Source of the DNA: an uncultured virus (IMG/VR IMGVR_UViG_3300008113_000017)
Taxonomy: Duplodnaviria; Heunggongvirae; Uroviricota; Caudoviricetes
Direction: 5' to 3' (one strand)
Virus record (IMG/VR): IMGVR_UViG_3300008113_000017
DNA length: 64,000 nucleotides
A program made the position numbers and the translations under genes. The notes below the pieces were generated by a model, which saw nothing but the letters and a program-made list of their open reading frames with translations, was not told the origin of the DNA and made no database searches. Numbering within the stretch: the stretch's first letter is position 1; each line of letters begins with the position of its first letter. Below, in pieces: positions 1-13,781 of this stretch.

Positions 1-2559
1 ATCTGACTTAGTGTTGTCAGGGGTCTCTACTAGGTCGAGCTCTACAGTTAAGTTTCCATTTGAATCTTCTTTAACTGAAGTAACCTTAAATTTTGAATTT
101 CTTGGTAATATAACTTCATCTTCAGCGTATCTAGATAATGCAGACCCCATAGAATATCCGGTTAATTTAGATCCTTTAGGCGAAAGTGCATATGTTATTG
201 ATTTGCCAGTAAGTCGATTTCCGGTGAGTGCCTGTACAGGATTTACAAATAAATCAATCGAGTTTAAATCTGTAGAAGTTGACATAAAGCCAGGGTCAAT
301 AAATTCAGCTCCAGGGACTAAAGCCTTTTTAGCTTTTTCAAAGTCATCTAGTCCCCTACGAGATTCACCAAGTGTAACTACTTTTCCATCACTAAAAAAC
401 TCTCCTCTAAACAATCTAGAAGCTATTAGGGGATTTTTTGAAGTTAAAGAGTCTAGCCCACGGACTACAGATTCTTGATCTTTAGGAACAGGTGTACCAG
501 TCCTTAATGCTTTATTTATAGGTATATAAGCTGCACGAGTGCTATATTTTCTAGCAGCACTTGACTCATCTTTTGTAATAACATCTTTTGAAGATAAGCC
601 TTTAGACAGATCTGCTGGTGGAGTAAATGTAGATTTTCTAGCTTTAAGTTGTCGCCAATCAAAATCTCCGGACTTCATTTTAAAGAAATCGTTGTCAGAT
701 AGGAAATAGTATCCAGCCTGAATTACGTCAAACGTATCTGCATTTTCTTCATCTTCTTCATCAGCATCTTCATCAAAAATAGATTCGTTTAGACTAATAC
801 GATACAGTCCAGTGTTAGAGTCGGATGGATTTCCGGTTACTTGATCAAGAGTAATTCCTGTAAACTCTGCTTCATCACTTCCAAGAACTTCTTTACCGGG
901 TTCTGCATACCTGCTAGTTACTGATCTATTCAAATCCTGAAATCCTAGGGGAAGAGTGTCACTGTCAATAGACACATTAAACTTAGTCTTGTCCCCACGT
1001 TTTAAAGTTTTATTTTCCAGTGTTACTGTTCTGCTACCGTCTGAAGACTCTACAGACTTTCTAGAAGACTCTAATTTTTTATCTTCTTCGGCAGCTTGCT
1101 CACGTAGTTTTTGTCGTAAATCCTCTCTAGCTGCTTGTAATTTTAAAAATTTTGAACTATTTGTATATTCTCTAGTGTCTTCATAAGACACGTAATCATC
1201 AATTTCAGCACCTTCAAAAGGTTTTTTTGGATCAGCATTAAGCCTTTTTTCTAAAGATTCTTTAGTTACAATTGCATATTCCGGAGCTATTCGCTCTGCT
1301 TCAACAGCTTCCCACCCAATATCATCTCCCTCTTGCATCTCGTATTCTTCTTTAGACAATCCATTTTCATCTAATTCAACAGGGTAGTCGTTATCTTTAA
1401 ATTCTTCGGTTCTAAAAATAAATTTATCTTTGTCTTCTTCTTTACCAGTGATGTCAAATAAAGTTACTCCAGTGTACCTAGATGGAAATCTTTCTAGCCT
1501 AGGTTCTTCACCAAAACCAATATCGTCACCGAGATAGTCTGTGAATCCAGTGACTCCCTCAAAATGTTTTTCATAATCATCTAGCCCGGTGCCCGACTCA
1601 TAAGATCTGTCAAGTGGATACCAATCTCCTGGATTAATTTTGTTTCCGGAAGATAGAGTTATAGGAGTGTCTCCAAATACATCTCCCTGTACCTTGTTAA
1701 ATCCAGGTTTTCTAGGTTTAGAAAATTTTCCTTCTTTTTGAGCAAAGCCGTCGTAATCAACGGTGTCGAACTCAGCGGTTCTAAGCATGATTTGACGTTC
1801 AGCTTCTTTAAAAGCTTCACTTGCGTCAATTCCAAGATCTACTTTTTCTTTAGGCTTGTCGCTAAAAGTAGCGGTAAATCTGCCACCCTTTTCCAAAATG
1901 TCGGTGACTAGACCGTTTTCCTCACGAGTCCAACGACTAATGTCTTTTTTAGCGTCTTTCTCTGTAGTAGCATCTACAAACTTACGTTCCGCCGCTGTTT
2001 CATTGAACTTGCCGGCTCTTTCAGATCCAGCTGCTTGTGCAAATCCTTCAGAGTCTTCTGGAAGAAGCTCAGAATCAAAAAATACATCTCTCGGCAAGAT
2101 AGTATCTTGATTTTCAGCAATTTTATCTAGCTTTTCTCTAGGAGCTACATATTTTCCGACTCTTCGAAGTTGAGTCTCATTTCCCGGAGAATCTTGAGAA
2201 TTTACAATTCTTACTGGGACATACTCGACTCCGGCTTTACGAGCCGCGGCTAGTCTATGGTTACCTTCAGTAATAAATGCTTTACCATTTTTAGGGTTGA
2301 GCACTACTATAATTGGCTCTTTAAAGCCGATGCCTTCTTCTAGATCTTTGGCAATGCTGTCTACCGTACTCTGCTCACGAATCTCATTACCTTCAGCTCC
2401 AATTAGAGCTTTGGTATTTACGTACTGAACTACCGATTTTCCATCAGATTTATAATCTTGTAGGTTAGGATTATACTTTTTACTGTATTCAGCATCTACC
2501 TCTGTACTAGGTGTCTGTGAGAACCCACGGTCCCCCTTTTCGGGGGTTACGCTTTTGGG
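1..2559 (-). CDS. C-terminal extension of the giant modular protein (reached by probable -1 frameshift); ParB-like domain ~2200-2440 and ADP-ribosyltransferase domain ~13-590; truncated by window edge
   Basis: Frame read codon by codon is open from 2571 to position 1 and is absent from the ORF track. It has no start codon before the ParB-like domain (FKEPIIVV...ITEGNHRLAAARKAG). ART motifs are YIPINKALR, LFRG, GFMSTS and EDEVILPRNSKFKV. It carries the same linkers as the upstream ORF (GFSQTPS, GFAQAAG, GFAQKEG). Confidence 0.85.
2532..2559 (-). other. Probable programmed -1 ribosomal frameshift signal
   Basis: Minus strand reads TC(C CCA AAA) GCG TAA CCCCC GAAAA GGGGG: an X XXY YYZ heptamer at 2553-2559, a 6-nt spacer, then a 5-bp G:C hairpin at 2532-2546. 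Confidence 0.75.
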
Positions 2560-5500
2560 GAGTTCGCACCTCTACGCTTTAGAGTATCAATAAGTCTTTG
2601 AATCTCGTCAGCAGACTTGCTGTTCAGGTTCGTGATTCCAAGCTTACGCTTCTCTGCAGAAGTCAGACCAAGAGAGTTAGCCAGATCCTTGACACGCTTA
2701 AGTTGTCTAGGAGTTGGCTTACCGGTGTCGACGCCAGCCTTAGGGTTTAGAGCCCTAAGTTGTCCAAGCATTGCACCCATCTGAGCCTTAGTCAAGTTTT
2801 TACTTGATAGGGCATCTTGAATTGCAGTAGCTAGTTCTGGATCGATGCCGTCTCTGTTGCCACCAAGTTCCTTGAGGTAGTCATACTGAGCGTCAGTAGC
2901 TGGCTCACCCATCTTAGGTGATACAACTGCGTTGCCAGGTTCTTGAGAAAAGCCGTCAGAATCATCATTAACATCATCATAATAACCTCGGCTGTTTTCA
3001 GCATCTTCATCAACAAGATCGCTGTTGTAGTAGTCTAGCTTTTCATTAGCAAATGCTAGGGCTTCTTCTTTAGAACCAAAAGTCTGAGAACCTTCGTCAT
3101 ATTGGAATTCTGCATCTTTATCCATGTATTGATACGAGTGATCTACTTCCCACTCACCGTCGCCCTTATACCAGACCTCAATCTGACTGTCAGAGTAAGG
3201 GTCTGTAGTATAACCACCATCGCTGTTTTGACTTAGTTTGTCATCCCTAACTGGAGTGCCTTTTCTGCCAGGTTCTTGGGCGAAACCACCCTGATCTTTC
3301 TTACGGTTTTTCTTATCTAGAATTCTCTGAGCACGATCTACAAAATCACTAAGAGCATATCTAAACTCATCTGATACTCTAGCATCACCAAAGTCCTCAT
3401 AAAGCCTTGCCATTCTATCGATAAACTCTTGCTCAGTACCATTTTCAATAGCTGTTGAAAGTTCTTTCTCTAGATTTGCTTCCGAGAAGTTTTGAGATAG
3501 ATTTGAGTTATAGTCAGCTGCTTCGTTAGCTGCCCACTCAATCGCGTCATCGCGGTCATCAAACTCTTGCCTATCATACGCAGAATCTCCGCTATCAGAA
3601 CCATAAGTAATTCTAGCTTCGTACTTACCATTCTCGTTTGGCTCATTGTCAATGTTGATTTCTGCTCCACCGCTTCTGTAGTCTCCCCAGTAACCATCAT
3701 CTGCAGCTTCTGCAATCTTATCGGCATCTGTTGAATAGTAAATTTCTCTAGCAGTAGCCATTTCATCTTCAACGTCAGATAGATCTAAGTTTCTTAAATC
3801 GTCAGGATCTCTAAGAGCTGCTCGTATTCCAGCACGATCTTCAATTCTCTTAATAACTTGATCTCTCAGGTTATCGAGCTCGTCTGCCAAACTAGAGTCA
3901 CTAGAATTATCTCTTCTAAGTCTAGATACAACATCTTGAAGATCGGAAGCAAACATGTAAGACTGCTCTACAGCCCAGTCTTTACCATATTTTTTATTGT
4001 CTGGATTGTCTGGATCTGACTCTGCTAACATTTCTCTCAAGTTGTCGCCGTCTAACATAAGGAAAGTGTCCTCATTTGCAGCGTCAAGTCTTCTTGCAAG
4101 CTCATCAATTCGCTCACCCTTTAGAGAGTTGTAGTAAGCATCCATCTCACCAGCAACTTCGGCAGGTCCGCTTTCTGTAAAGTCGTCACCAGCACGGTCG
4201 CGGTTGAACTGCTCTTCTCCAGGAATGCCTGGCTCCTGAGCAAAGCCGATAGTCTCTGGACGATCCTTCTTTCTACGAAGCTTGTCGTTTAGAGCATCTA
4301 CTTCAGCACGGTTCATGTTTGGTAGGTTGTCTAGGATGTCCTTGACTTCTTCTGGAGTTAGGTCCTTGGTCACAAGCTTGCTGTTCAATGACTGAAGAGC
4401 ACGGTCGCTTGGCTTGTTAGGGTCGACGCCCGGTTTGAACGGAGCATCACGCATAGGGCCAATAAGTGCACTCATCTGTGCCTTAGTTAGGTTCTTGTTC
4501 GCAAGAGCTTCTGTAATTGCCTGAGCAGTTAGGTCGTCAGCTGGAACTCTTTCATCAGCGTACTCTTGTAGAAGAGCATACTGAGCAGGAGTTGCAGGTT
4601 CCATCTGCTTAGCAGACAAACCTCCAGTTTTTTCCTTGTTTTGCTTCTTATTGCCGTCAGCAATCTGCTTACGTAGCCATTTCTCGGCTGCCTCTGGACT
4701 ATTGAATGATTTACTAGTAGTATTTCCTAGTCCATTTCTATTTTCAGGATTAGCGTATTTAGCAAACCATCTGTTAGATTCTGTACCGTCTTCATTTTTA
4801 TAGACGCCATACCTAACGTCAGATATGTTACCGTTGGCATCTTTATAAACTACGCCTCCTACTTTATCGACAGACTTAAGATCTAAAGCGTTTGGGTCCT
4901 CTTCTAATAGATCGGAACCGGTTCCTGGTTCTTGGGCGAATCCACCGCTCTTATCTTCACGGAAGAAGTCATAGTCTTCACCATTGTTTAGACCAATCGT
5001 ATCAAACCATTCACCAGGTCCAAAGCCTGATTCTTTGTCTGCTTCTAGGAATAGCTTATAAGCTAGTACTTCACTATGGTAGCGACTAGGTTTTTCAATA
5101 GCTCCCTTAATCTCTCTACCGTTGTACCCATTAGCAACTGCCATATCAGCAATTAAATTGTAATAGCTGTATGGATCACTTTCGGCGAGACCATTTAGAT
5201 AATCATCGTTGTAGCTCATAGCATTTTGTACTAGATCGCTAAGTTCTTCATTGTCATAGTCACCAGCAAGTTCAGAAAGTTTTTCCGAATCAAAATAACC
5301 ATCGTCTTCTGCGCCAAGAGCACTTAAAATTTTATTAGCATCTTCTTCGCTCTTTGAGAAAAGATCTTTGTTAATTTTATCTTGCTCGTCCCAGGCATTC
5401 TGTACGTCAGATGCAAGGCCGGCAAGTTCACCATCTTGAGGAAGGTACTTAAATTGCTTAGATCTTGCAGCCCAACCAAATTGAGCTTTTTGTTGTTGAA

Positions 5501-8500
5501 GATCTCGGATTTCATCTCTATTATCAGATTTATCAATTTTACCCTGAAGAATATCTTCAGCTTCTTTGACAGCTCGATTTACTTTATCACGTATTGGCTT
5601 ATTAGCTGCTTTAGGAGTAAAATCAATTCTACCCTTTGGATAGTTTGTCCAAGCATAGTTTTTAGCTGGCTCTTCGCCACCAGGACGTTGAGCAAAGCCT
5701 TCACCTTCAGAGCCAAAACCAATCTCGTTTAGCCAGTGATCATTGTTCTGATCCTCAGCCCAGGTGTTCATTTCTGCGTCAAGAACATAGTCATGATAGT
5801 TATAAGGTTTCTCAATCATACGTTTGAACTCAGATGGGCTTGCATTTATAGCTTCAGCAGCATTCGCAATTTTGTAGAAGTATTCAGCAGGATTTGTACG
5901 AGCTAAATTGTCTAGGTAGTTTTCATTTAGCTCTTTAATTTCCTGAGCAGCTTCGTAGTCTTCATCATCCTCGTCTAGACCGCCGTCTTCAATAAAAGCA
6001 TACTTCTCAACAAGTCTCTTAGCTAGAGCTTTGTTCTTTGCTCTAACTTCTGGGCTTGGTCCGTTTCCAGGTGCTTGACCAAAGCCTCCGTAATCAAGAT
6101 CGGCAGCGTAATCCTCTGCGTCCTGATTTACTTCCATACTGTTGTAGTAATTAAGTTTTTCGTTAGCAAATGCTAGAGCTTCTCCCTTAGTGTCGAAGGT
6201 CTTAGAGCCTTCGTCAAACGGCAACTCTCCTCTAGATTTGTCCATGTGAATGAACTGGTGGTTTACTTCCCACTTACCGTCATTGGTAGGGTTGACTTCA
6301 ATTTGACCTGGCTCACCAAAAGTAGTGCTAAGAGAACCGTCGTCACTCGTAATCAATTTGGAATTGTTTATAGGAGTATATTTTCTGCCAGGTTCTTGAG
6401 CGAAACCTCCGGACTCAAGATCAGCGGCGGCATCTTCTGCATCTGAGAATACCTTGTCACCGTTGTAGTAGTCTAGTTTTTCGTTAGCAAATACAAGAGC
6501 TTGCTTTATAGAATCAAACTTCTGAGAACCTTCGTCAAATGCAAACTCATTTCCAGAGCGTGCCATGTGGTTGTACGCGTGGCTTACTTCCCATTTACCG
6601 TCATCAGTAGGGTTGACTTCAATTTGCTTGTTAGAAGTTGGACTAGTACTGTAACCACGATTGCTAGTTGGCTGTAACACTTCTGGTTTGCCAGTTGCTT
6701 GAGCGAAGCCAGCTGCAGGAGATTCTCCGTTAGCGTCTCTAAGAGCTCGATCAATAGCCTCAACAGCGTCTTGTTTAGCCTTAAGTGGGTCACCAAACCC
6801 TAAGTTAGCTTTATCAATGTCTTCGATTGCTTGTCTAATTTCATCTTCGTAGTCTGGAACAATGTCTACAGGCTTACCATCGAAGGTGACCACAAGGAAA
6901 TTACCGTCAGGATCTCCTTCTACGACTACCTTTAGGCGTCCGTCTGCAGAAGTAAAGTTTCCGCTTCTATCCCAGAGATCAGGATTGTCAGCTGCCTTAC
7001 GGTCAATCTTAGGAGTGTAGCTAATTGAAAGATCTGCACTCTTGCCAACCTCAGCAAGAAGCTTGCCCATCTCGCCTTTGGTTAGGGCCTTGTTAGCAAC
7101 GGCTTCTTCAACCATATCGCGAACGTCGGTTGGAAGTTTTTCACCTTGGTTATCTAAGATACCCTGAAGCTTGTTGTACTGTAGGGAGCTAGCTGGGTCT
7201 TTAGTCCAGGCTGGTGGCTCGTCGCCAGGTTCTTGAGCAAAACCGCCCATCTCGTCTGGAGACTTTCTAGCGTTTCCTTCAAGTTCTGAGAACAGACGTT
7301 CGCCGTCTTCAAGTGCCTTGTCTAGATTATCTGTAGGTTCACCCTGGCCCATAATTTCACCATTACGGTTGTAGGCGATAGGGGTAATCATACCCTTGTC
7401 TTTTTCTAGACGTACAATTCCACCATCTTCTGTTTCTGCAGTAGCAGCAAAGAAAATATCACTATCTGGATATAGAAGGAATTTTCCGCGTTTATTTGAA
7501 GACTCACCAGGCTTTTGATCAAATCCACCGGTTTGCTTCTTTAGGAATTTGTCAACTAAAACACCTACGTCTTTTGCTAGGTCTGCTGAATCGTAGCCCC
7601 AACCAATGTAAGGAAGCTCACCAACCCATTCGCCATCGTAAGATACAGAAATACGAGATAGGTTTGTACCACCAAATCCCATGTCTGGTTCTCCATCTGC
7701 CATTGACTCAAGAGTCAATCTTCCATCTGGAGACTTGTAGGTAGCGTCATTACCGCCTTCAGGATCTCCGAACCAGTGGCTTAGGTTGGCAATGTGAGCC
7801 TCGTCAACTCCACCAGCTTGGCCGGCTGATTGGGAGAATCCTTCGATATCATCGGTTCTTTCACCGTACTTGATATTCGGTCCGCCTCTAAGAAGTTCTT
7901 TAAGATCCGAAACAATTTCTTCTGCTTCTCTTTCAACACCTTCAGGCTCCATGTCTGGGTATCGAGAACTATCGTCAACTAAAACAAAATTCTGTACGTA
8001 GCCAATTGGTTTTCCATCATAACTAACTTCCCAGTCTCCACCTTCTACATAGGCAGAAGCAGCTCCTTTATTGGTTTCATAGTCATAATCACCAGATTTG
8101 TCTACATATTTTATTTCAAGTTTTCCGTCCTTAGACTTCCACTCGTCTCTAAAATCAAAACTACTGTCAAGTTCACCAGAATAGTCTTTGGCTAAGTTAC
8201 GTCGCTTAGGACTGCTATTAAGGTGCTTTGAGATTACATTCTCAATTTCATCAGCATAGTCGTCAATATCCATGAGCTCGATTGGTTGAGAGTATGGTCT
8301 ATCGATGTATCTAACAGGCTGTCCATCTTCTAGATCTATAGTATATTTTTCCCCATCAACAGATACTTCTAGATAAGATGTATCGACTGCAGGATCATCT
8401 GCATAATAGCCAGCATCAGCGTCTCGGACGTAAGTAATCTTAATTCTTCCATCTCTAGAAACCCAGGTACGGTCCTTAAATGCTTCGGCAGACCAGTTGG

Positions 8501-11500
8501 CGTCTTTAAATGCGTCTACTGGAAGCTTATATTTTAGAGGCTCATCTTCTCCAGGCGCTTGAGCAAAACCTTCAATGTCATCTTGACCAGGAAGATCTGC
8601 TAGAGAAATGTCATTTGCAGCCTTTTCTGCTGCACCAATGCTCTTGAAGTTTGATGACGCACCTAGTTCGCCACCATCCTGAGAAATTGGAGTTACGTCC
8701 CAGGTACCATCGCCCTTAGGTGTGTAACGCATCATCAAACCTTCAGAGTTTTTCTTCAATAGGTTTGGACTTGCGTCTTCCCAGCCGTTGGTGTCTGGCA
8801 TACCCTTTAGACGAGTAATGAGATCTGAAGCTTCATCCTTGGTCATCTTTGGAAGACGCTTGCTTAGATCAGCGGCTTCTTTAGCAGGAAGACCCTTAGA
8901 AATTAGACCACGGCGGATAGACGCTAGTTGTCTATCTGAAGGTACGTTGGTGTCAACGGCCTTTCGCATCTCACCAATTACGGCACCAATTTCGCCCTTA
9001 GTTGCTTCTTTGTTTGCAAGAATATCTTGCATAGACTTACGAAGTTCTTCTGGAAGTTTGTCACCCTGCTTTTCTAGGATGTTAGCTACGAATCCACGCT
9101 GGGCATCGGTTGCTGGGTCAGAAGATTTTCCACCCGGTTCTTGACTGAAACCAGGCATTTGATCATAACCTTCAAAGCCATCAACGTCATAGTAATCCCG
9201 ATCATTTGATTTAGCTTGAGCGTTACCAAAAGCTTCGTCAAGCGCACCTATTTTTCCGTCTTCACCTTCACCATAGTTTTTAGGGTCATAGCCATCACTA
9301 AACTCGCGCTCTTTGTCACCACCAAATGGACTTTTAACGAGACTACCACCTACAACATCAACAGTACCGTCGGAATACTGAGTTATCTCAGCTGAACCGG
9401 CGTCACCTTCGTAGAACCAAACACGTTTTCCTGCTGCTTTATCGGATTCAGACGTTATTTCTTTGAAGTCTTTTCCGTAAGCCTTAACAAGATCGTCAAC
9501 GGTATTAATTTCTGGTTCATTGCCAGGTGCTTGATAGAAGCCATCTCTTTCCCAGTCTTCAGGACCCTCTGGTGGCTCTGGTGGATCGTAGTCACTCTCT
9601 CCAGCACCAAATATACCTGCAATATCGTCCATGGAAGAGCCCAAAGGAAGTGACTCATAACTAGTGTCTACATCTTGACTAGGTGGCTCATCCCAGCCTC
9701 CAGGATTGTATTTACCGGCAGTATATTGAGTTAATTCGGCTGCTCCACCAGGATAAATTTCTAGTTCTGCGTACTTGTAGTTATCTTCACTACCTAATGT
9801 TAGAAATATCACACCATCATCATCAGGGAATACATCTCCTGAATACCCGTATTCCTCTGCAAGATTTTTAATAGCAGCTAACTCTTCATCAGAATAAAAA
9901 GAACTCTCAGAAGACCCATTTTCATAGTCGTCATATTTTTTAAGTTGAGCAGCGATTACATCGTGGTACTTAGCGTATTCAGGGTCCTCTAGCAAAGATT
10001 TCATTGCTTCTGCATCTAAATCCTTGAAAGACGTAAATACTTTAGCTTTTAATCCACGGTTGTACTTAATTTGCTCAATTTTGGCCTCGCGAGCCTTTTT
10101 TACATCTGACTTAAGTGGTTCTAAGCCATCTTTTTCACGTTTTTTATTTTTTGGAAATGCAAAGATTCCTTCTATATCATTCTGGGATCTTAAGTTATAA
10201 CCATACTCACTGCTTAAAACACCAACACCAATGGTGTCTCCACTGTAGTACCTTTTACCAGCATTTTCTCCTTCGGTAATATTTATTTCAAAATTACTCG
10301 GGTTAGGATTATTTTCTTGTCCACTCCAAGGCGTATATACAATCTCGTGGCCATAAGCTGACCATTTTCTAATGCCTTTGGCAGCATCTTCGGGGGTGGT
10401 AACTTCTACTGCATCATACTTTTTTGCAAAATCGTCAAGATTAATATTCTCCCCACCAGGTGCTTGATCATAGCCATAAAAATCGCGATTGTCGCGATCC
10501 TCGTCGTATGTGTCTGGCTCATCATCAGAATTATCGTAGTTTTCATAACCCTCATCCATCAGTCCAGCTAAGTCGTCTAAGCTAGAACCGGCTGGAATAC
10601 TATTTCCATCACTTCTAACGTCAGCATCTGCTGGGCTATCCCAGGATGCTGCATAACGCTTTGCAACATAAAAGTTTTCTAGGTCTGCGGATCCATCTGC
10701 ACGTACAATTAGCTCAGCCCATGCGTCTCCAGCGTCATCGCCTTTTACTAGAGATATATATGGTTCTTCTCCTAAATATTCACCTCTAGGTAAGCCGTAA
10801 CCAAACTCATCCATTAATTTTTGAATATCCTCGAGTTCTTTATTTGTCCAGTACGGGCTATCAGCTTCCCCTGCTTCATATGCCTTTGCTTTTTCTAACT
10901 GCTTACTAGCATAATCATGATGTGCCGCATATTCAGGATTGTCGAGTACTGACTGGATCTGCTCAATAGATCCAGTATTAATTCCACGATATGCGCGAAT
11001 TTCAGCTACATCTTTAGGGGATATTCTTTGAGCTTTTGATACGAGCTCTTCCGCATTTGCAATTGCACGATCTTTTAGTTCGGTGCTTTCATATGCTGCG
11101 TTTTTCTTGTTTTCCAGATTTTTTTGTAGTGCTTCTACGTCGCCAAATCGAACAGCTTTTTGTCGATCGTAATATGATTCAAAATTATTGTAGAATTTAG
11201 GATCACCGTATTCAAAAACACCATAGTCGTACTCTTTCTCACCAGGAGCTTGCTCGAAGCCTTCATTATTTTCTAATAGATCCTTAGGAGATAGTTTTTT
11301 ATTTCTGCCAGGTTCTTGAGCGAAGCCCTTAGCTGGCTGCTGTTTGCGTAGACGTGCTTTTGCTTTTGGAGCCTTACCCTTACCAGAGTCATTATCTGCG
11401 GCAAGCTTTTGAAGGTTTGCCCATTCCTGAGCGTAGCCAACAAAATCTCCAAATTCATCTGACAAAGAAAGTACAGGTTTGTTTGAATCATATGAGCCAT

Positions 11501-12572
11501 CAGGACCAGCACCAATAAATTTTGAGCCCGAAGGTGCTTGCTCGCCGGATGGAAGAGTTGAAACAGAGTAGCCGTCTGCAGACGTAAAGGTGCCATCACC
11601 ATTGTCAGTCCAACCAGTTGGAGCAGACTTGCGGTTTGCTAGAAGTTCTTGTAGTGGAATTGCGTAACGTGAGTTTTTAGAGTCTGCCTTAAATGCTGGA
11701 GCTTCTCCAGTTCTAAGAATAGCTTTTAGACCTTCTACCTTAGATGCAGGAACAGAATAGATACCTGATGGAAGATCGGCTCCTCCTCCAGAAATTTCAA
11801 CTTCAATCCTGTCGCTGTCTTGTGGGTTACCAGCAAACTTACCAACGAACGACTTAATCATGTCGCCAATCATGGCAAATATACGAGATCCACCACCCAT
11901 CTCAGCAAATCGACCCTTACGGTCACGACGTTGCAACTTGGCACGTGCAGAACGTGCTGCTGAAGAGTTATTTCCAGCGAATGGGTTTCCGATACCAAAA
12001 GCAGCGGTAATTGCTTGAATCTTAATGTCTGCTGGAACAGAAGCAGTTAGTGCCTCTAGACGTGCAGCAGCGTAGATGCTCTTGCTACTTCTTGGCTGTT
12101 GAACAAATGCCTCAAAGACTGCTTTACGTACAGACTCGTCAGTGATGCGTGGGTCGTAGGAAACCCAAGCAGCATTACGGACGCGACGTGCAGATGCAGT
12201 AATCGGGCCAACGGTTTTTGTTGAGTACGGGTGAGCACTAGGGAGTAGGTCCCTAAACTCTACTACCGGAGCTTTATTGGAAGCCGGACCGTCGATAGCG
12301 TAGTCAACAAAATTGGTTACTTCACGCGCAGCGTGGAAGAAAATGTCTCGAGGGTCTTCGATGTCTAGTTTGCTTGCAATGTAACGATCTGTGTAGTTAA
12401 GAACGTCTTTTAGTGCTACTTGTCTTACCGAGGCAACTAACGCGTTTCTTTCAACAACGTAGTTTATAACGCCTCTCTTAAAGATCTGCTCACTCTCGGT
12501 GACAGTTATTTCTAGATCTTTTTCACTTAAGCTCTCTAGAGCAGCAACTAGGGGATTCAAATTTTCACTCAC
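2547..12572 (-). CDS. Giant acidic modular (polyvalent) probable virion-associated protein, 3341 aa
   Basis: Long ORF with AGGAAGG RBS-like sequence upstream, a QRRDRKGRF motif, about 18 GFxQxPG-type linkers and internally duplicated modules; lies downstream of portal and Dps fusion. Confidence 0.85.
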   Translation of the reverse strand: MSENLNPLVAALESLSEKDLEITVTESEQIFKRGVINYVVERNALVASVRQVALKDVLNYTDRYIASKLDIEDPRDIFFHAAREVTNFVDYAIDGPASNKAPVVEFRDLLPSAHPYSTKTVGPITASARRVRNAAWVSYDPRITDESVRKAVFEAFVQQPRSSKSIYAAARLEALTASVPADIKIQAITAAFGIGNPFAGNNSSAARSARAKLQRRDRKGRFAEMGGGSRIFAMIGDMIKSFVGKFAGNPQDSDRIEVEISGGGADLPSGIYSVPASKVEGLKAILRTGEAPAFKADSKNSRYAIPLQELLANRKSAPTGWTDNGDGTFTSADGYSVSTLPSGEQAPSGSKFIGAGPDGSYDSNKPVLSLSDEFGDFVGYAQEWANLQKLAADNDSGKGKAPKAKARLRKQQPAKGFAQEPGRNKKLSPKDLLENNEGFEQAPGEKEYDYGVFEYGDPKFYNNFESYYDRQKAVRFGDVEALQKNLENKKNAAYESTELKDRAIANAEELVSKAQRISPKDVAEIRAYRGINTGSIEQIQSVLDNPEYAAHHDYASKQLEKAKAYEAGEADSPYWTNKELEDIQKLMDEFGYGLPRGEYLGEEPYISLVKGDDAGDAWAELIVRADGSADLENFYVAKRYAASWDSPADADVRSDGNSIPAGSSLDDLAGLMDEGYENYDNSDDEPDTYDEDRDNRDFYGYDQAPGGENINLDDFAKKYDAVEVTTPEDAAKGIRKWSAYGHEIVYTPWSGQENNPNPSNFEINITEGENAGKRYYSGDTIGVGVLSSEYGYNLRSQNDIEGIFAFPKNKKREKDGLEPLKSDVKKAREAKIEQIKYNRGLKAKVFTSFKDLDAEAMKSLLEDPEYAKYHDVIAAQLKKYDDYENGSSESSFYSDEELAAIKNLAEEYGYSGDVFPDDDGVIFLTLGSEDNYKYAELEIYPGGAAELTQYTAGKYNPGGWDEPPSQDVDTSYESLPLGSSMDDIAGIFGAGESDYDPPEPPEGPEDWERDGFYQAPGNEPEINTVDDLVKAYGKDFKEITSESDKAAGKRVWFYEGDAGSAEITQYSDGTVDVVGGSLVKSPFGGDKEREFSDGYDPKNYGEGEDGKIGALDEAFGNAQAKSNDRDYYDVDGFEGYDQMPGFSQEPGGKSSDPATDAQRGFVANILEKQGDKLPEELRKSMQDILANKEATKGEIGAVIGEMRKAVDTNVPSDRQLASIRRGLISKGLPAKEAADLSKRLPKMTKDEASDLITRLKGMPDTNGWEDASPNLLKKNSEGLMMRYTPKGDGTWDVTPISQDGGELGASSNFKSIGAAEKAANDISLADLPGQDDIEGFAQAPGEDEPLKYKLPVDAFKDANWSAEAFKDRTWVSRDGRIKITYVRDADAGYYADDPAVDTSYLEVSVDGEKYTIDLEDGQPVRYIDRPYSQPIELMDIDDYADEIENVISKHLNSSPKRRNLAKDYSGELDSSFDFRDEWKSKDGKLEIKYVDKSGDYDYETNKGAASAYVEGGDWEVSYDGKPIGYVQNFVLVDDSSRYPDMEPEGVEREAEEIVSDLKELLRGGPNIKYGERTDDIEGFSQSAGQAGGVDEAHIANLSHWFGDPEGGNDATYKSPDGRLTLESMADGEPDMGFGGTNLSRISVSYDGEWVGELPYIGWGYDSADLAKDVGVLVDKFLKKQTGGFDQKPGESSNKRGKFLLYPDSDIFFAATAETEDGGIVRLEKDKGMITPIAYNRNGEIMGQGEPTDNLDKALEDGERLFSELEGNARKSPDEMGGFAQEPGDEPPAWTKDPASSLQYNKLQGILDNQGEKLPTDVRDMVEEAVANKALTKGEMGKLLAEVGKSADLSISYTPKIDRKAADNPDLWDRSGNFTSADGRLKVVVEGDPDGNFLVVTFDGKPVDIVPDYEDEIRQAIEDIDKANLGFGDPLKAKQDAVEAIDRALRDANGESPAAGFAQATGKPEVLQPTSNRGYSTSPTSNKQIEVNPTDDGKWEVSHAYNHMARSGNEFAFDEGSQKFDSIKQALVFANEKLDYYNGDKVFSDAEDAAADLESGGFAQEPGRKYTPINNSKLITSDDGSLSTTFGEPGQIEVNPTNDGKWEVNHQFIHMDKSRGELPFDEGSKTFDTKGEALAFANEKLNYYNSMEVNQDAEDYAADLDYGGFGQAPGNGPSPEVRAKNKALAKRLVEKYAFIEDGGLDEDDEDYEAAQEIKELNENYLDNLARTNPAEYFYKIANAAEAINASPSEFKRMIEKPYNYHDYVLDAEMNTWAEDQNNDHWLNEIGFGSEGEGFAQRPGGEEPAKNYAWTNYPKGRIDFTPKAANKPIRDKVNRAVKEAEDILQGKIDKSDNRDEIRDLQQQKAQFGWAARSKQFKYLPQDGELAGLASDVQNAWDEQDKINKDLFSKSEEDANKILSALGAEDDGYFDSEKLSELAGDYDNEELSDLVQNAMSYNDDYLNGLAESDPYSYYNLIADMAVANGYNGREIKGAIEKPSRYHSEVLAYKLFLEADKESGFGPGEWFDTIGLNNGEDYDFFREDKSGGFAQEPGTGSDLLEEDPNALDLKSVDKVGGVVYKDANGNISDVRYGVYKNEDGTESNRWFAKYANPENRNGLGNTTSKSFNSPEAAEKWLRKQIADGNKKQNKEKTGGLSAKQMEPATPAQYALLQEYADERVPADDLTAQAITEALANKNLTKAQMSALIGPMRDAPFKPGVDPNKPSDRALQSLNSKLVTKDLTPEEVKDILDNLPNMNRAEVDALNDKLRRKKDRPETIGFAQEPGIPGEEQFNRDRAGDDFTESGPAEVAGEMDAYYNSLKGERIDELARRLDAANEDTFLMLDGDNLREMLAESDPDNPDNKKYGKDWAVEQSYMFASDLQDVVSRLRRDNSSDSSLADELDNLRDQVIKRIEDRAGIRAALRDPDDLRNLDLSDVEDEMATAREIYYSTDADKIAEAADDGYWGDYRSGGAEINIDNEPNENGKYEARITYGSDSGDSAYDRQEFDDRDDAIEWAANEAADYNSNLSQNFSEANLEKELSTAIENGTEQEFIDRMARLYEDFGDARVSDEFRYALSDFVDRAQRILDKKNRKKDQGGFAQEPGRKGTPVRDDKLSQNSDGGYTTDPYSDSQIEVWYKGDGEWEVDHSYQYMDKDAEFQYDEGSQTFGSKEEALAFANEKLDYYNSDLVDEDAENSRGYYDDVNDDSDGFSQEPGNAVVSPKMGEPATDAQYDYLKELGGNRDGIDPELATAIQDALSSKNLTKAQMGAMLGQLRALNPKAGVDTGKPTPRQLKRVKDLANSLGLTSAEKRKLGITNLNSKSADEIQRLIDTLKRRGANSPKA

Positions 12573-12662: not shown

Positions 12663-13781
12663 TTAACCGTGTACGAAATAGCCTAATGCAAATGCAAGAG
12701 CTGTATTAAATCCAGACTTGCCCTTAGACTGCCCGTAGATCCAAGCATCCTTGATCTGGCTAACGGCTTCATAGCCTTTTCCAGAGAATTCAGCAATATC
12801 TAGGACTGCATCATCATTACGCTTGTACTCGCCAGGCTTTCTAACAGTTACGGTTAGACCGTTTTTAACTGCAGCTGAAGCCACAAGTGGGTCAATGCTT
12901 AGGGCCTTAGGGTGAGTATGAGGCAGCAAATCAGCGTCATCGGTTGAGAATGTTGTTAGCAACTTCTCACTACCAATCTGAGACAAGAAGTTCTGTACTC
13001 GGCTAATTGCAAAGCGGTGGCGGGTTGTGCCTTCGGACATTTCACCAGCGTACTTTCTAGCTCCACGGCGGTAAACGGTCTTGCACTTAGCAAAAGTAGT
13101 CTTTAGGCCATCCTGAGCAGAAGCGTTGTAGTTGTCAACAAGTGATCGCAGCTCTGCTTCAACGTTGGTTGGAAGCACTAGTTCGCGAGAACGTCCAGAT
13201 GCAAAGAATGCAGTTCCGTCTTGGTCATAACCATCTAGGAATGCAAGCTCGTCGTCCCAGCCGTCCTGAGAAATTGGAACTATAGGAGACTCAACGTCAA
13301 CAATCATAATTGTGCTAGTCGATGGGACCTGCATTCCTAGAGTTGCAGCCAACTGCCACTGCCACTTCTGGTGCATGTCTATTCGCTCGGCAATAAAGTT
13401 TGCAACTCCCTGCTCATTGCAGCCATTTGCACAGTCAAAAGTCTGAACAAGGTGAGAGATAAGTTTACCGTTGACGTCAAGTAAAGACGAAACCATACGA
13501 GTCGGGTCGCTAGAGATTATCTTCTCTGGAACACAGGTCGCAAGGTCGTTGAACTCTGACATCATAAATGGAGCGTCAAAGCCGAGCTTGCGGATGTTCT
13601 CCGCCAGTGGGTCTAGCGATCCAGATACGTCTTCGTAAATGTCGCCAAAAAACTCGTGGAACTCTCTGAAGTCCATGCCTTTGACGTTCCAGTGATAGCC
13701 GTGAGAAACGTGATACATAACAGCAGCGTTTGCAAGTGCTGTAGATAGCTTGTCTCTTAGATCGGTTTTTGAGTGAGTCAT
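12663..13781 (-). CDS. Dps/ferritin-like domain fused to a VYRRGA...DLLPxxHP domain
   Basis: N-terminal Dps signatures HGYHWNVKGMDFREFHEFFGDIYE, LAENIRKLG and HQKWQWQL; the C-terminal part aligns by eye with a domain of 58998..60554. Confidence 0.85.
   Translation of the reverse strand: MTHSKTDLRDKLSTALANAAVMYHVSHGYHWNVKGMDFREFHEFFGDIYEDVSGSLDPLAENIRKLGFDAPFMMSEFNDLATCVPEKIISSDPTRMVSSLLDVNGKLISHLVQTFDCANGCNEQGVANFIAERIDMHQKWQWQLAATLGMQVPSTSTIMIVDVESPIVPISQDGWDDELAFLDGYDQDGTAFFASGRSRELVLPTNVEAELRSLVDNYNASAQDGLKTTFAKCKTVYRRGARKYAGEMSEGTTRHRFAISRVQNFLSQIGSEKLLTTFSTDDADLLPHTHPKALSIDPLVASAAVKNGLTVTVRKPGEYKRNDDAVLDIAEFSGKGYEAVSQIKDAWIYGQSKGKSGFNTALAFALGYFVHG

Follow-up and report, generated by a model that had tools for sequence, protein, structure and literature searches.

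Does the gene for a giant protein of an uncultured tailed phage end at its stop codon, or do some ribosomes slip back by one nucleotide (nt) just ahead of that stop and continue into a second part of the protein? The question is posed by a stretch of 64,000 nt from the IMG/VR virus record IMGVR_UViG_3300008113_000017 (Caudoviricetes), the whole of which we refer to as the window. Here, an uncultured freshwater tailed phage has, going by its sequence, a gene for a polyvalent protein within its head-morphogenesis module, and this gene closes with a slippery heptamer, a stop codon and a hairpin. We regard it as very probable that this arrangement is a site of programmed -1 ribosomal frameshifting of the phage A2 type. 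All coordinates are those of the window and refer to the minus strand, unless another record is named.

Anatomy of the junction

The open reading frame (ORF) of the giant protein, which we call the 0 frame, covers 2547..12572. It starts with GTG, has GGAAGG upstream, and encodes 3341 amino acids (~369 kDa). Its 3' end, ggt gcg aac tcc cca aaa gcg taa, encodes G-A-N-S-P-K-A-stop. Within it lies the slippery heptamer C CCA AAA (2559-2553), a sequence of the form X XXY YYZ in phase with the 0-frame codons CCA AAA. A single codon (GCG) separates the heptamer from the stop TAA (2549-2547), and a hairpin composed of CCCCC (2546-2542), the loop GAAAA and GGGGG (2536-2532) begins 6 nt after the heptamer and spans 2532..2546. 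The -1 frame is closed upstream by a TAG (2574-2572), opens 4 codons before the heptamer and then remains open through base 1, with 857 codons from the TAG inside the window; the part of the extension seen there spans 1..2559. Given this TAG, a shift must fall within 2550-2571, and heptamer, 6-nt spacer and GC hairpin are found within the sole 8-codon overlap of both frames. Shortly afterwards, at 2515..2526, the extension reaches its first linker, G-F-S-Q (-1-frame residues 16-19), 10 residues past the Lys at which the shift would occur. An earlier sequence-only reading of this DNA had described the N-S-P-K-A-stop end over C CCA AAA with a hairpin 6 nt on, the -1 frame closed by TAG and then open to base 1, and a linker resuming within 10 codons; the letters read exactly so, and the ORF scan and the translation agree.

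Could such an arrangement be a coincidence? CCCAAAA occurs a single time in the 0-frame ORF, counting any phase. In-phase XXXYYYZ heptamers number 13 per 3341 codons of this ORF, and perfect all-GC hairpins of 5 bp number 7 per strand in the 64 kb. From the heptamer count, the chance of a heptamer inside the 8-codon overlap is ~3%; from the hairpin count, that of a hairpin starting 5-9 nt downstream is ~5e-4. A pattern resembling the whole cassette is seen at 1 place in the window, against 0.07 expected. A terminator scan of the minus strand found the hairpin not to be terminator-like and no T-run after it, leaving a terminator role of this hairpin unsupported.

A Shine-Dalgarno (SD)-like GAGGTG at 2567-2572, 7 nt upstream of the heptamer, is reminiscent of the upstream stimulator of dnaX. 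We do not claim it as a stimulator of that style, since the sequences of the relatives lack it.

The predicted long form and its domains

How large would the product of the shift be? The part beyond base 1 was read from virus record G001, which matches the first 3000 bases at 100% identity. There, the -1 ORF comprises 1779 codons counted from the TAG and ends at position 7951 of L002. The predicted long form has 5113 amino acids, made up of residues 1-3340 and then of Ser (AGC) onward for 1773 residues, and the added part of ~196 kDa would bring its mass to ~565 kDa. The sequence-only reading had been right about the 3341 residues of the short form; its figures of more than 850 amino acids for the extension and more than 4190 for the long form are corrected by the longer record to 1779 codons and 5113 amino acids.

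The division of domains between the two parts is sharp. A ParB-like domain (..EGNHRLAAA..) at 2173..2451, corresponding to extension residues ~41-133, matches phrog_4715, phrog_8071, phrog_1033 and others, and an ADP-ribosyltransferase (ART; PF03496) occupies 34..585 (extension residues 663-846). In G001 the extension further holds two ArdC-N (PF08401) plus MPTase-PolyVal (PF18818) zincin metallopeptidase modules. All of these matches, both copies of PF18818 and PF08401 included, fall inside the -1 extension, as do both HExxH motifs, of which the 0-frame part has zero. A Pfam search of the 0-frame part returned no enzymatic domain and no effector family, only a marginal match to DUF2188. A zincin peptidase is present in every visible extension (window, G004, L014 and L013) and missing from the 0-frame parts of the window and G004. 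With the peptidases confined to the extensions, a frameshift would gate them together with the other enzyme modules.

What ties the two parts together is a linker of the form G-[FY]-x-Q, usually G-F-A-Q-x-P-G, which strings together the domains on both sides of the junction. The pattern G[FY][ASDEG]Q occurs 25 times, 18 in the 0-frame part and 7 in the extension. As a control, it was counted once in 11,537 residues of other long frames of the window and 0 times in the next gene. A related linker, G-L-D-Q-D-A, follows the cassette in the L016-L022 group.

Conservation of the signal in relatives

If the cassette serves a function, is it retained where the surrounding sequence has changed? The loci L012, L013 and L005/L006 were recruited through similarity of the ParB protein, independent of the motif. 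At the junction they all retain heptamer, 6-nt spacer and GC hairpin within diverged flanks, and the signal whose conservation the sequence-only reading had proposed to check in relatives is present there. L012, with 73% identity in ParB, ends in ..K-N-P-K-A-stop over aaC CCA AAA GCC TAG, followed by CCCCC-AACGA-GGGGG. It carries a different upstream domain; the -1 frame, open from 1 codon ahead of the heptamer, leads straight into a G-F-D-Q linker. In L013 (48% identity) the end is ..D-P-K-K-A-stop over A AAA AAA GCG TAA, followed by UCCCCG-ACU-CGGGGA. This hairpin has the same 15-nt span, with the outer pair changed from C-G to U-A, a compensatory double change. Its -1 frame opens directly before the heptamer and runs for ~567 codons that include a zincin peptidase and ParB.

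A scan of viral contigs with the strict motif gave 9 loci, 2 from the window phage and 7 on other contigs. The two-frame layout is seen in all nine: upstream, at least 500 codons of the 0 frame are open, and the -1 frame, beginning 1-17 codons ahead of the heptamer, meets no stop over the 173-507 codons that lead to the edge of the locus. Variation is seen in their loops (GAAAA, AACGA, AAAAA, AGCGA, AATGA, GAAGA, GAAGC), in the GCN codon and in whether the stop is TAA or TAG. Where it is TAG, the stop takes part in the pairing and the stem has 8 bp; most relatives have 8-bp stems, of -15.8 to -17 kcal/mol. Among the related records searched, 4 of 5 have exactly one cassette place; G002 has none of this form.

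A protein-based search for more relatives gave 8 loci, of which 6 had already been found by the motif; the other two are a second instance of the domain on the L014 contig (L029) and a distant match (L030). A scan of genome contigs gave 4 loci. The layout recurs in two of them, L040 and L041; L039, with a -1 frame that is open for 212 codons upstream, is ambiguous, and L042 does not fit. L040 and L041 lie on contigs binned as metagenome-assembled genomes of Chloroflexota and carry the strict cassette with ..T-D-P-K-A-stop, the -1 frame of L041 being open for at least 507 codons up to the edge of the locus. Neither their short upstream ORF nor their extension matches a PHROG family.

A sister lineage with inverted polarity

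One of the relatives is G002 (L005/L006), a 94%-complete record with the same gene order, in which the homolog is a single ORF of 4795 amino acids running through the junction. The extension of the window compares with this in-frame relative at 66% in the ParB part and 76% in the ArdC/MPTase part. L005/L006 have an extra module of ~150 amino acids between the last 0-frame domain and ParB. The ART segment and ~590 residues around it are present in the window phage and absent from the otherwise collinear G002; comparison of the two sequences indicates that this is a module gain or loss inside the extension.

In Escherichia coli dnaX, a -1 heptamer, a spacer of ~6 nt and a hairpin give rise to the two isoforms tau and gamma, which differ in their C-terminal region. 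The junction of the sister lineage has the same logic. At 5541-5576 of L005, and identically in L006, the sequence reads cgC CCA AAA GGT AGA, followed by the 7-bp hairpin ACCCGGC-GAUAA-GCCGGGU. The 0 frame continues, and the stop, TAG, stands in the -1 frame (CCC AAA AGG TAG), so that a shift would cut the protein short at that same boundary between domains, in the manner of dnaX. The window has the opposite polarity, with a shift that extends instead of truncating, and its heptamer differs from that of dnaX. CCCAAAA occurs in phase twice in the 4796-codon ORF of G002, and the other copy (codon 714) has neither a hairpin nor a nearby -1 stop. Judged from these features, the G002 junction would be a functioning mirror-image site or else a cassette relic of recent origin. 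In either case, its retention there shows that the cassette at this place is older than the split of both lineages.

Alternative explanations

Can two overlapping frames be explained without a ribosome that slips? The simplest objection is an error of sequencing or assembly, whereby one true frame lost a base in a short homopolymer. The break does sit in a C4A4 run, and a one-frame homolog does exist in G002. Against this stand four independent assemblies (window, G001, L003 and L004) that are letter-identical at the junction, and a fifth, L011, that matches the ParB query adjoining it on the downstream side with 100% identity. Logan contigs of three other runs, X13, X14 and X17 (dated 2021-2025), span the site with 0 indels, with the provisos that the X13 and X14 records are equal in length and may be one data set, and that rare variants could escape contigs, which are not raw reads. 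The sole difference in these contigs is a synonymous single-nucleotide polymorphism at 2500 (GAG to GAA, -1-frame codon 24). The two-frame layout moreover recurs in diverged relatives. An extra or missing base, which the sequence-only reading had pointed to as the test of its proposal, is thus not seen in any of these sequences, and we attach next to no probability to an assembly indel. Transcriptional slippage, in which RNA polymerase adds or drops a base in a run to yield a fused mRNA, is a further candidate, and the run of 7 A at the L013 site speaks for it. Runs prone to such slippage, however, usually have 7 or more bases, and those of the window are merely C4 and A4; the conserved downstream hairpin and the strict X XXY YYZ phase are typical of ribosomal events and not of those caused by the polymerase. 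We consider this explanation very improbable.

The two remaining alternatives concern the fate of the extension: it might be left untranslated behind a fixed frameshift mutation, with the 3341-residue form as the only product, or it might be a gene of its own, begun at a non-canonical start or by reinitiation after termination at TAA. The former gains some appeal from the fact that indels in homopolymers would leave slippery-looking sequence. Yet, with L005 set against the window phage, the ratio of nonsynonymous to synonymous substitution rates (dN/dS) comes to 0.17 for ParB and 0.13 for ArdC/MPTase at a dS of 1.2-1.6, on par with the 0.12 of the last 0-frame domain. For the first 85 codons of the -1 frame, comparison among five motif-bearing relatives gives 0.12-0.33 at a dS of 0.6-1.7. 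The 1779 codons are still open, the layout of stop and hairpin is retained across lineages with dS above 1, and a random indel would not be expected to bring a correctly spaced hairpin. A separate gene, in turn, is suggested by the close overlap of stop and downstream frame, as in coupled genes, and by an ATT (codon 60) with a weak SD-like motif upstream. Here, the starts themselves are the difficulty. The first canonical ones in the -1 frame are the GTG at 2304 (codon 86 from the heptamer, without SD) and the ATG at 1788 (codon 258), both as listed in the sequence-only reading, whose view that the downstream ORF lacks its own start also holds: ATG, GTG and TTG are missing for 85 codons, where only ATT, ATC and ATA could serve, and there is no SD-backed alternative. 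In all nine strict loci, no ATG, GTG or TTG is found for 43-144 codons past the heptamer, and the first start falls at non-conserved positions. The nearby GTG (acc gtg ggt) belongs to the 0 frame and opens an ORF of just 10 codons. Conserved protein sequence and the linker begin right past the heptamer, with homology to the in-frame relative starting at -1-frame residue 25, and a late start would cut into them. Both the fixed mutation and the separate gene therefore appear very improbable to us.

Programmed frameshifting at the heptamer remains the reading that we hold with considerable confidence, and several points have to be set against it. The hairpin of the window, all-GC and 5 bp long, has the weakest stem of the compared set, and the local fold is unexceptional relative to shuffled sequences (z = -1.0 for 35 nt and z = -1.4 for 121 nt). 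An Rfam search matched no frameshift element, its sole match being sR33 with E = 0.75, a chance hit. Seven of the supporting loci were found by the motif; the search itself fixes the motif in them, and what they contribute independently is their ORF layout. The sister lineage G002 yields the long form without a shift, and frameshifting is hence not indispensable. The efficiency of a shift would hinge on the transfer RNA (tRNA) set of the host; the 64-kb window contains no tRNA genes. Finally, the case is built on the anatomy and comparison of sequences.

How widespread is this phage? The stretch 2200-2900 is present in 20 listed runs from 16 studies of 2019-2025, labelled lake water, freshwater or 'fungus' metagenomes; no RNA data set is among the runs listed. 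A megablast of window positions 1-5000 against 50,697 phage records found no match, and a tblastn of the ParB part for cultured relatives found none at E <= 1e-5.

A cassette shared with phage A2

A close parallel comes from a Lactobacillus phage. Phage A2 uses -1 frameshifting (Atkins et al. 2016, PMC5009743), and the reference list of that review cites two studies of A2, one concerned with its major head protein and the other with a second major virion protein. In the A2 record, ORF5 (major head) ends in ..acc cca aaa gcg taa and ORF10 (major tail) in ..gcc cca aaa gcg tag, which bears out the statement in the sequence-only reading that CCCAAAA drives frameshifts in structural genes of A2. 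The 13-nt core of the window, CCCAAAAGCGTAA, is the 3' end of A2 ORF5, and ORF10 carries CCCAAAAGCGTAG. The cores are located at L057 5569-5580 and 7928-7939, and the slippage is unannotated in the record. The likeness extends beyond the identical core, C CCA AAA GCG TAA in ORF5 and ..GCG TAG in ORF10: a single codon separates the site from the 0-frame stop, at the extreme 3' end of a gene of the virion module, and the second product, a predicted one in the window, is extended at its C-terminus. There are also two differences. A2 adds a small domain to a capsid or tail subunit, whereas the window would add 1773 residues with enzymes to a protein of 3340 residues, and A2 lacks the CCCCC/GGGGG hairpin at +6.

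Is the cassette then confined to these two cases? A scan with a relaxed motif gave 23 loci, 14 of them new, and in 11 of the 14 an ORF of 143 codons or more has CCCAAAA followed by one codon and then its stop. The other three (L046, L048 and L049) do not fit and are apparent chance matches. On the loci compared, the cassette is a widespread phage recoding unit, and its use on a polyvalent protein is new. In L043-L056, CCCAAAAGCNTAR plus GC hairpin, a 'P-K-A-stop' cassette, ends major head genes (phrog_422, phrog_10, phrog_544) and also a major tail gene (phrog_820), and the -1 extensions of these head and tail genes measure 19-62 codons. The extensions of L050 and L051 match a C-terminal segment common to several PHROG families, among them the 'Arc-like repressor' phrog_1539.

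From two frames to two predicted isoforms

How would the site work? The majority of ribosomes would read CCA AAA GCG, stop at TAA and release the 3341-residue protein, an array of small domains that are joined by G-F-A-Q-x-P-G linkers and whose functions are not assigned. A fraction would pause as the CCCCC/GGGGG hairpin reaches the mRNA entrance, and both tRNAs would slip from CCA AAA onto CCC AAA. Reading would then go on in the -1 frame with Ser (AGC) and the rest of the 1773 residues to complete the 5113-residue form, which alone would bring the ParB-like domain, the ADP-ribosyltransferase and the two ArdC-N plus zincin modules. We infer from the sequence that slippage takes place at the heptamer, and the long form is presumably the minor one, as most ribosomes should terminate at TAA. 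The mechanism itself is canonical and of the A2 type; what is new is the setting in a polyvalent gene of the head module and the predicted 5113-residue product.

A -1 shift that extends a polyprotein into its enzymes, including a protease, is familiar from retroviral gag-pro-pol and from coronavirus ORF1a/1ab. The window resembles these systems in that its HExxH motifs are found only in the extension. It differs in being a DNA phage and in having a simple hairpin instead of a pseudoknot, and processing at the linkers is here only conjectured.

A second comparison is with the polyvalent proteins of phages and conjugative elements described by Iyer et al. 2017 (PMC5512222). Like these, the window protein is a multi-domain giant with the hallmark domains ArdC-N, MPTase-PolyVal (PF18818), ParB-like and ART, and its place beside head genes fits the proposal of packaging and injection put forward in that work. 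On the strength of the gene position and of this proposal, the giant protein is probably packaged and injected. The MPTase domain has been proposed to be autoproteolytic (PMC5512222). What sets the window apart is that all recognizable effector and peptidase domains lie behind the recoding site, and that the 3341-residue front part matches no effector family. PMC5512222 contains 0 occurrences of the word 'frameshift'. Judged by title and abstract, the papers listed contained no report of a frameshift in a polyvalent protein or an ArdC phage protein, and nothing relevant on CCCAAAA, frameshift and phage combined. In the part available of a paper on freshwater phages (PMC6802176), ART genes are noted, and frameshift, polyvalent, ArdC and ParB have 0 occurrences.

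These comparisons can be joined into a tentative picture, which we offer as a possibility and would not call likely: a dosage switch with the logic of gag-pol in a DNA phage, acting through cleavable linkers and encoded by a portable cassette. The abundant 3341-residue form may be a peptidase-less array of cargo domains, and the minority 5113-residue form may be the only supply of the two zincin metallopeptidases and of the ParB-like, ART and ArdC domains. One could speculate that the 25 linkers are cut sites at which these peptidases split both forms into single domains, be it inside the capsid or once the protein has been injected. A requirement for two isoforms may be old, with the sister lineage having retained heptamer and hairpin and shifted the stop to the -1 frame, and the 'P-K-A-stop' plus GC hairpin may be a unit that is portable across unrelated head, tail and polyvalent genes.

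Why does this matter? Gene callers would report a 3341-residue protein and a start-less or truncated ORF, and the domains behind the shift (ParB, ART and ArdC-peptidase) would be overlooked or taken for a gene of their own. Recognizing the cassette mends the annotation for a whole group of freshwater phages. Of the phage proteins that arise by recoding, the predicted long form would rank with the largest. As all recognizable enzymes, both peptidases included, are encoded beyond the point of slippage, the phage could adjust how much carrier-like array it makes relative to an enzymatic, self-processing form, a regulation not discussed for polyvalent proteins in the literature found. The sister of inverted polarity offers a natural experiment on why two isoforms persist, and CCCAAAAGCNTAR with a GC hairpin can serve as a search key that picks out such sites in uncultured phages, in polyvalent genes as well as in those for head and tail.

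Genomic surroundings

The gene order around the junction is terminase large subunit, portal, Dps-like gene, giant gene, a protease-containing gene and major head protein. The terminase large subunit is located at L002 18751-20163 and the portal at L002 13791-15551. Between the portal and giant genes, at 12663-13781 on the minus strand, lies a Dps/ferritin-like protein of 372 amino acids (PF00210; phrog_3636, 'DNA binding protein'), and G002 has an ORF of 371 amino acids in the same place. The next gene after the giant one, seen in G001 beyond window base 1 (L002 2964-7718), encodes 1584 amino acids, and its mid part matches phrog_859 and phrog_18402. Its matches to head maturation protease and 'portal' families make it an unusually long protease-containing head gene.

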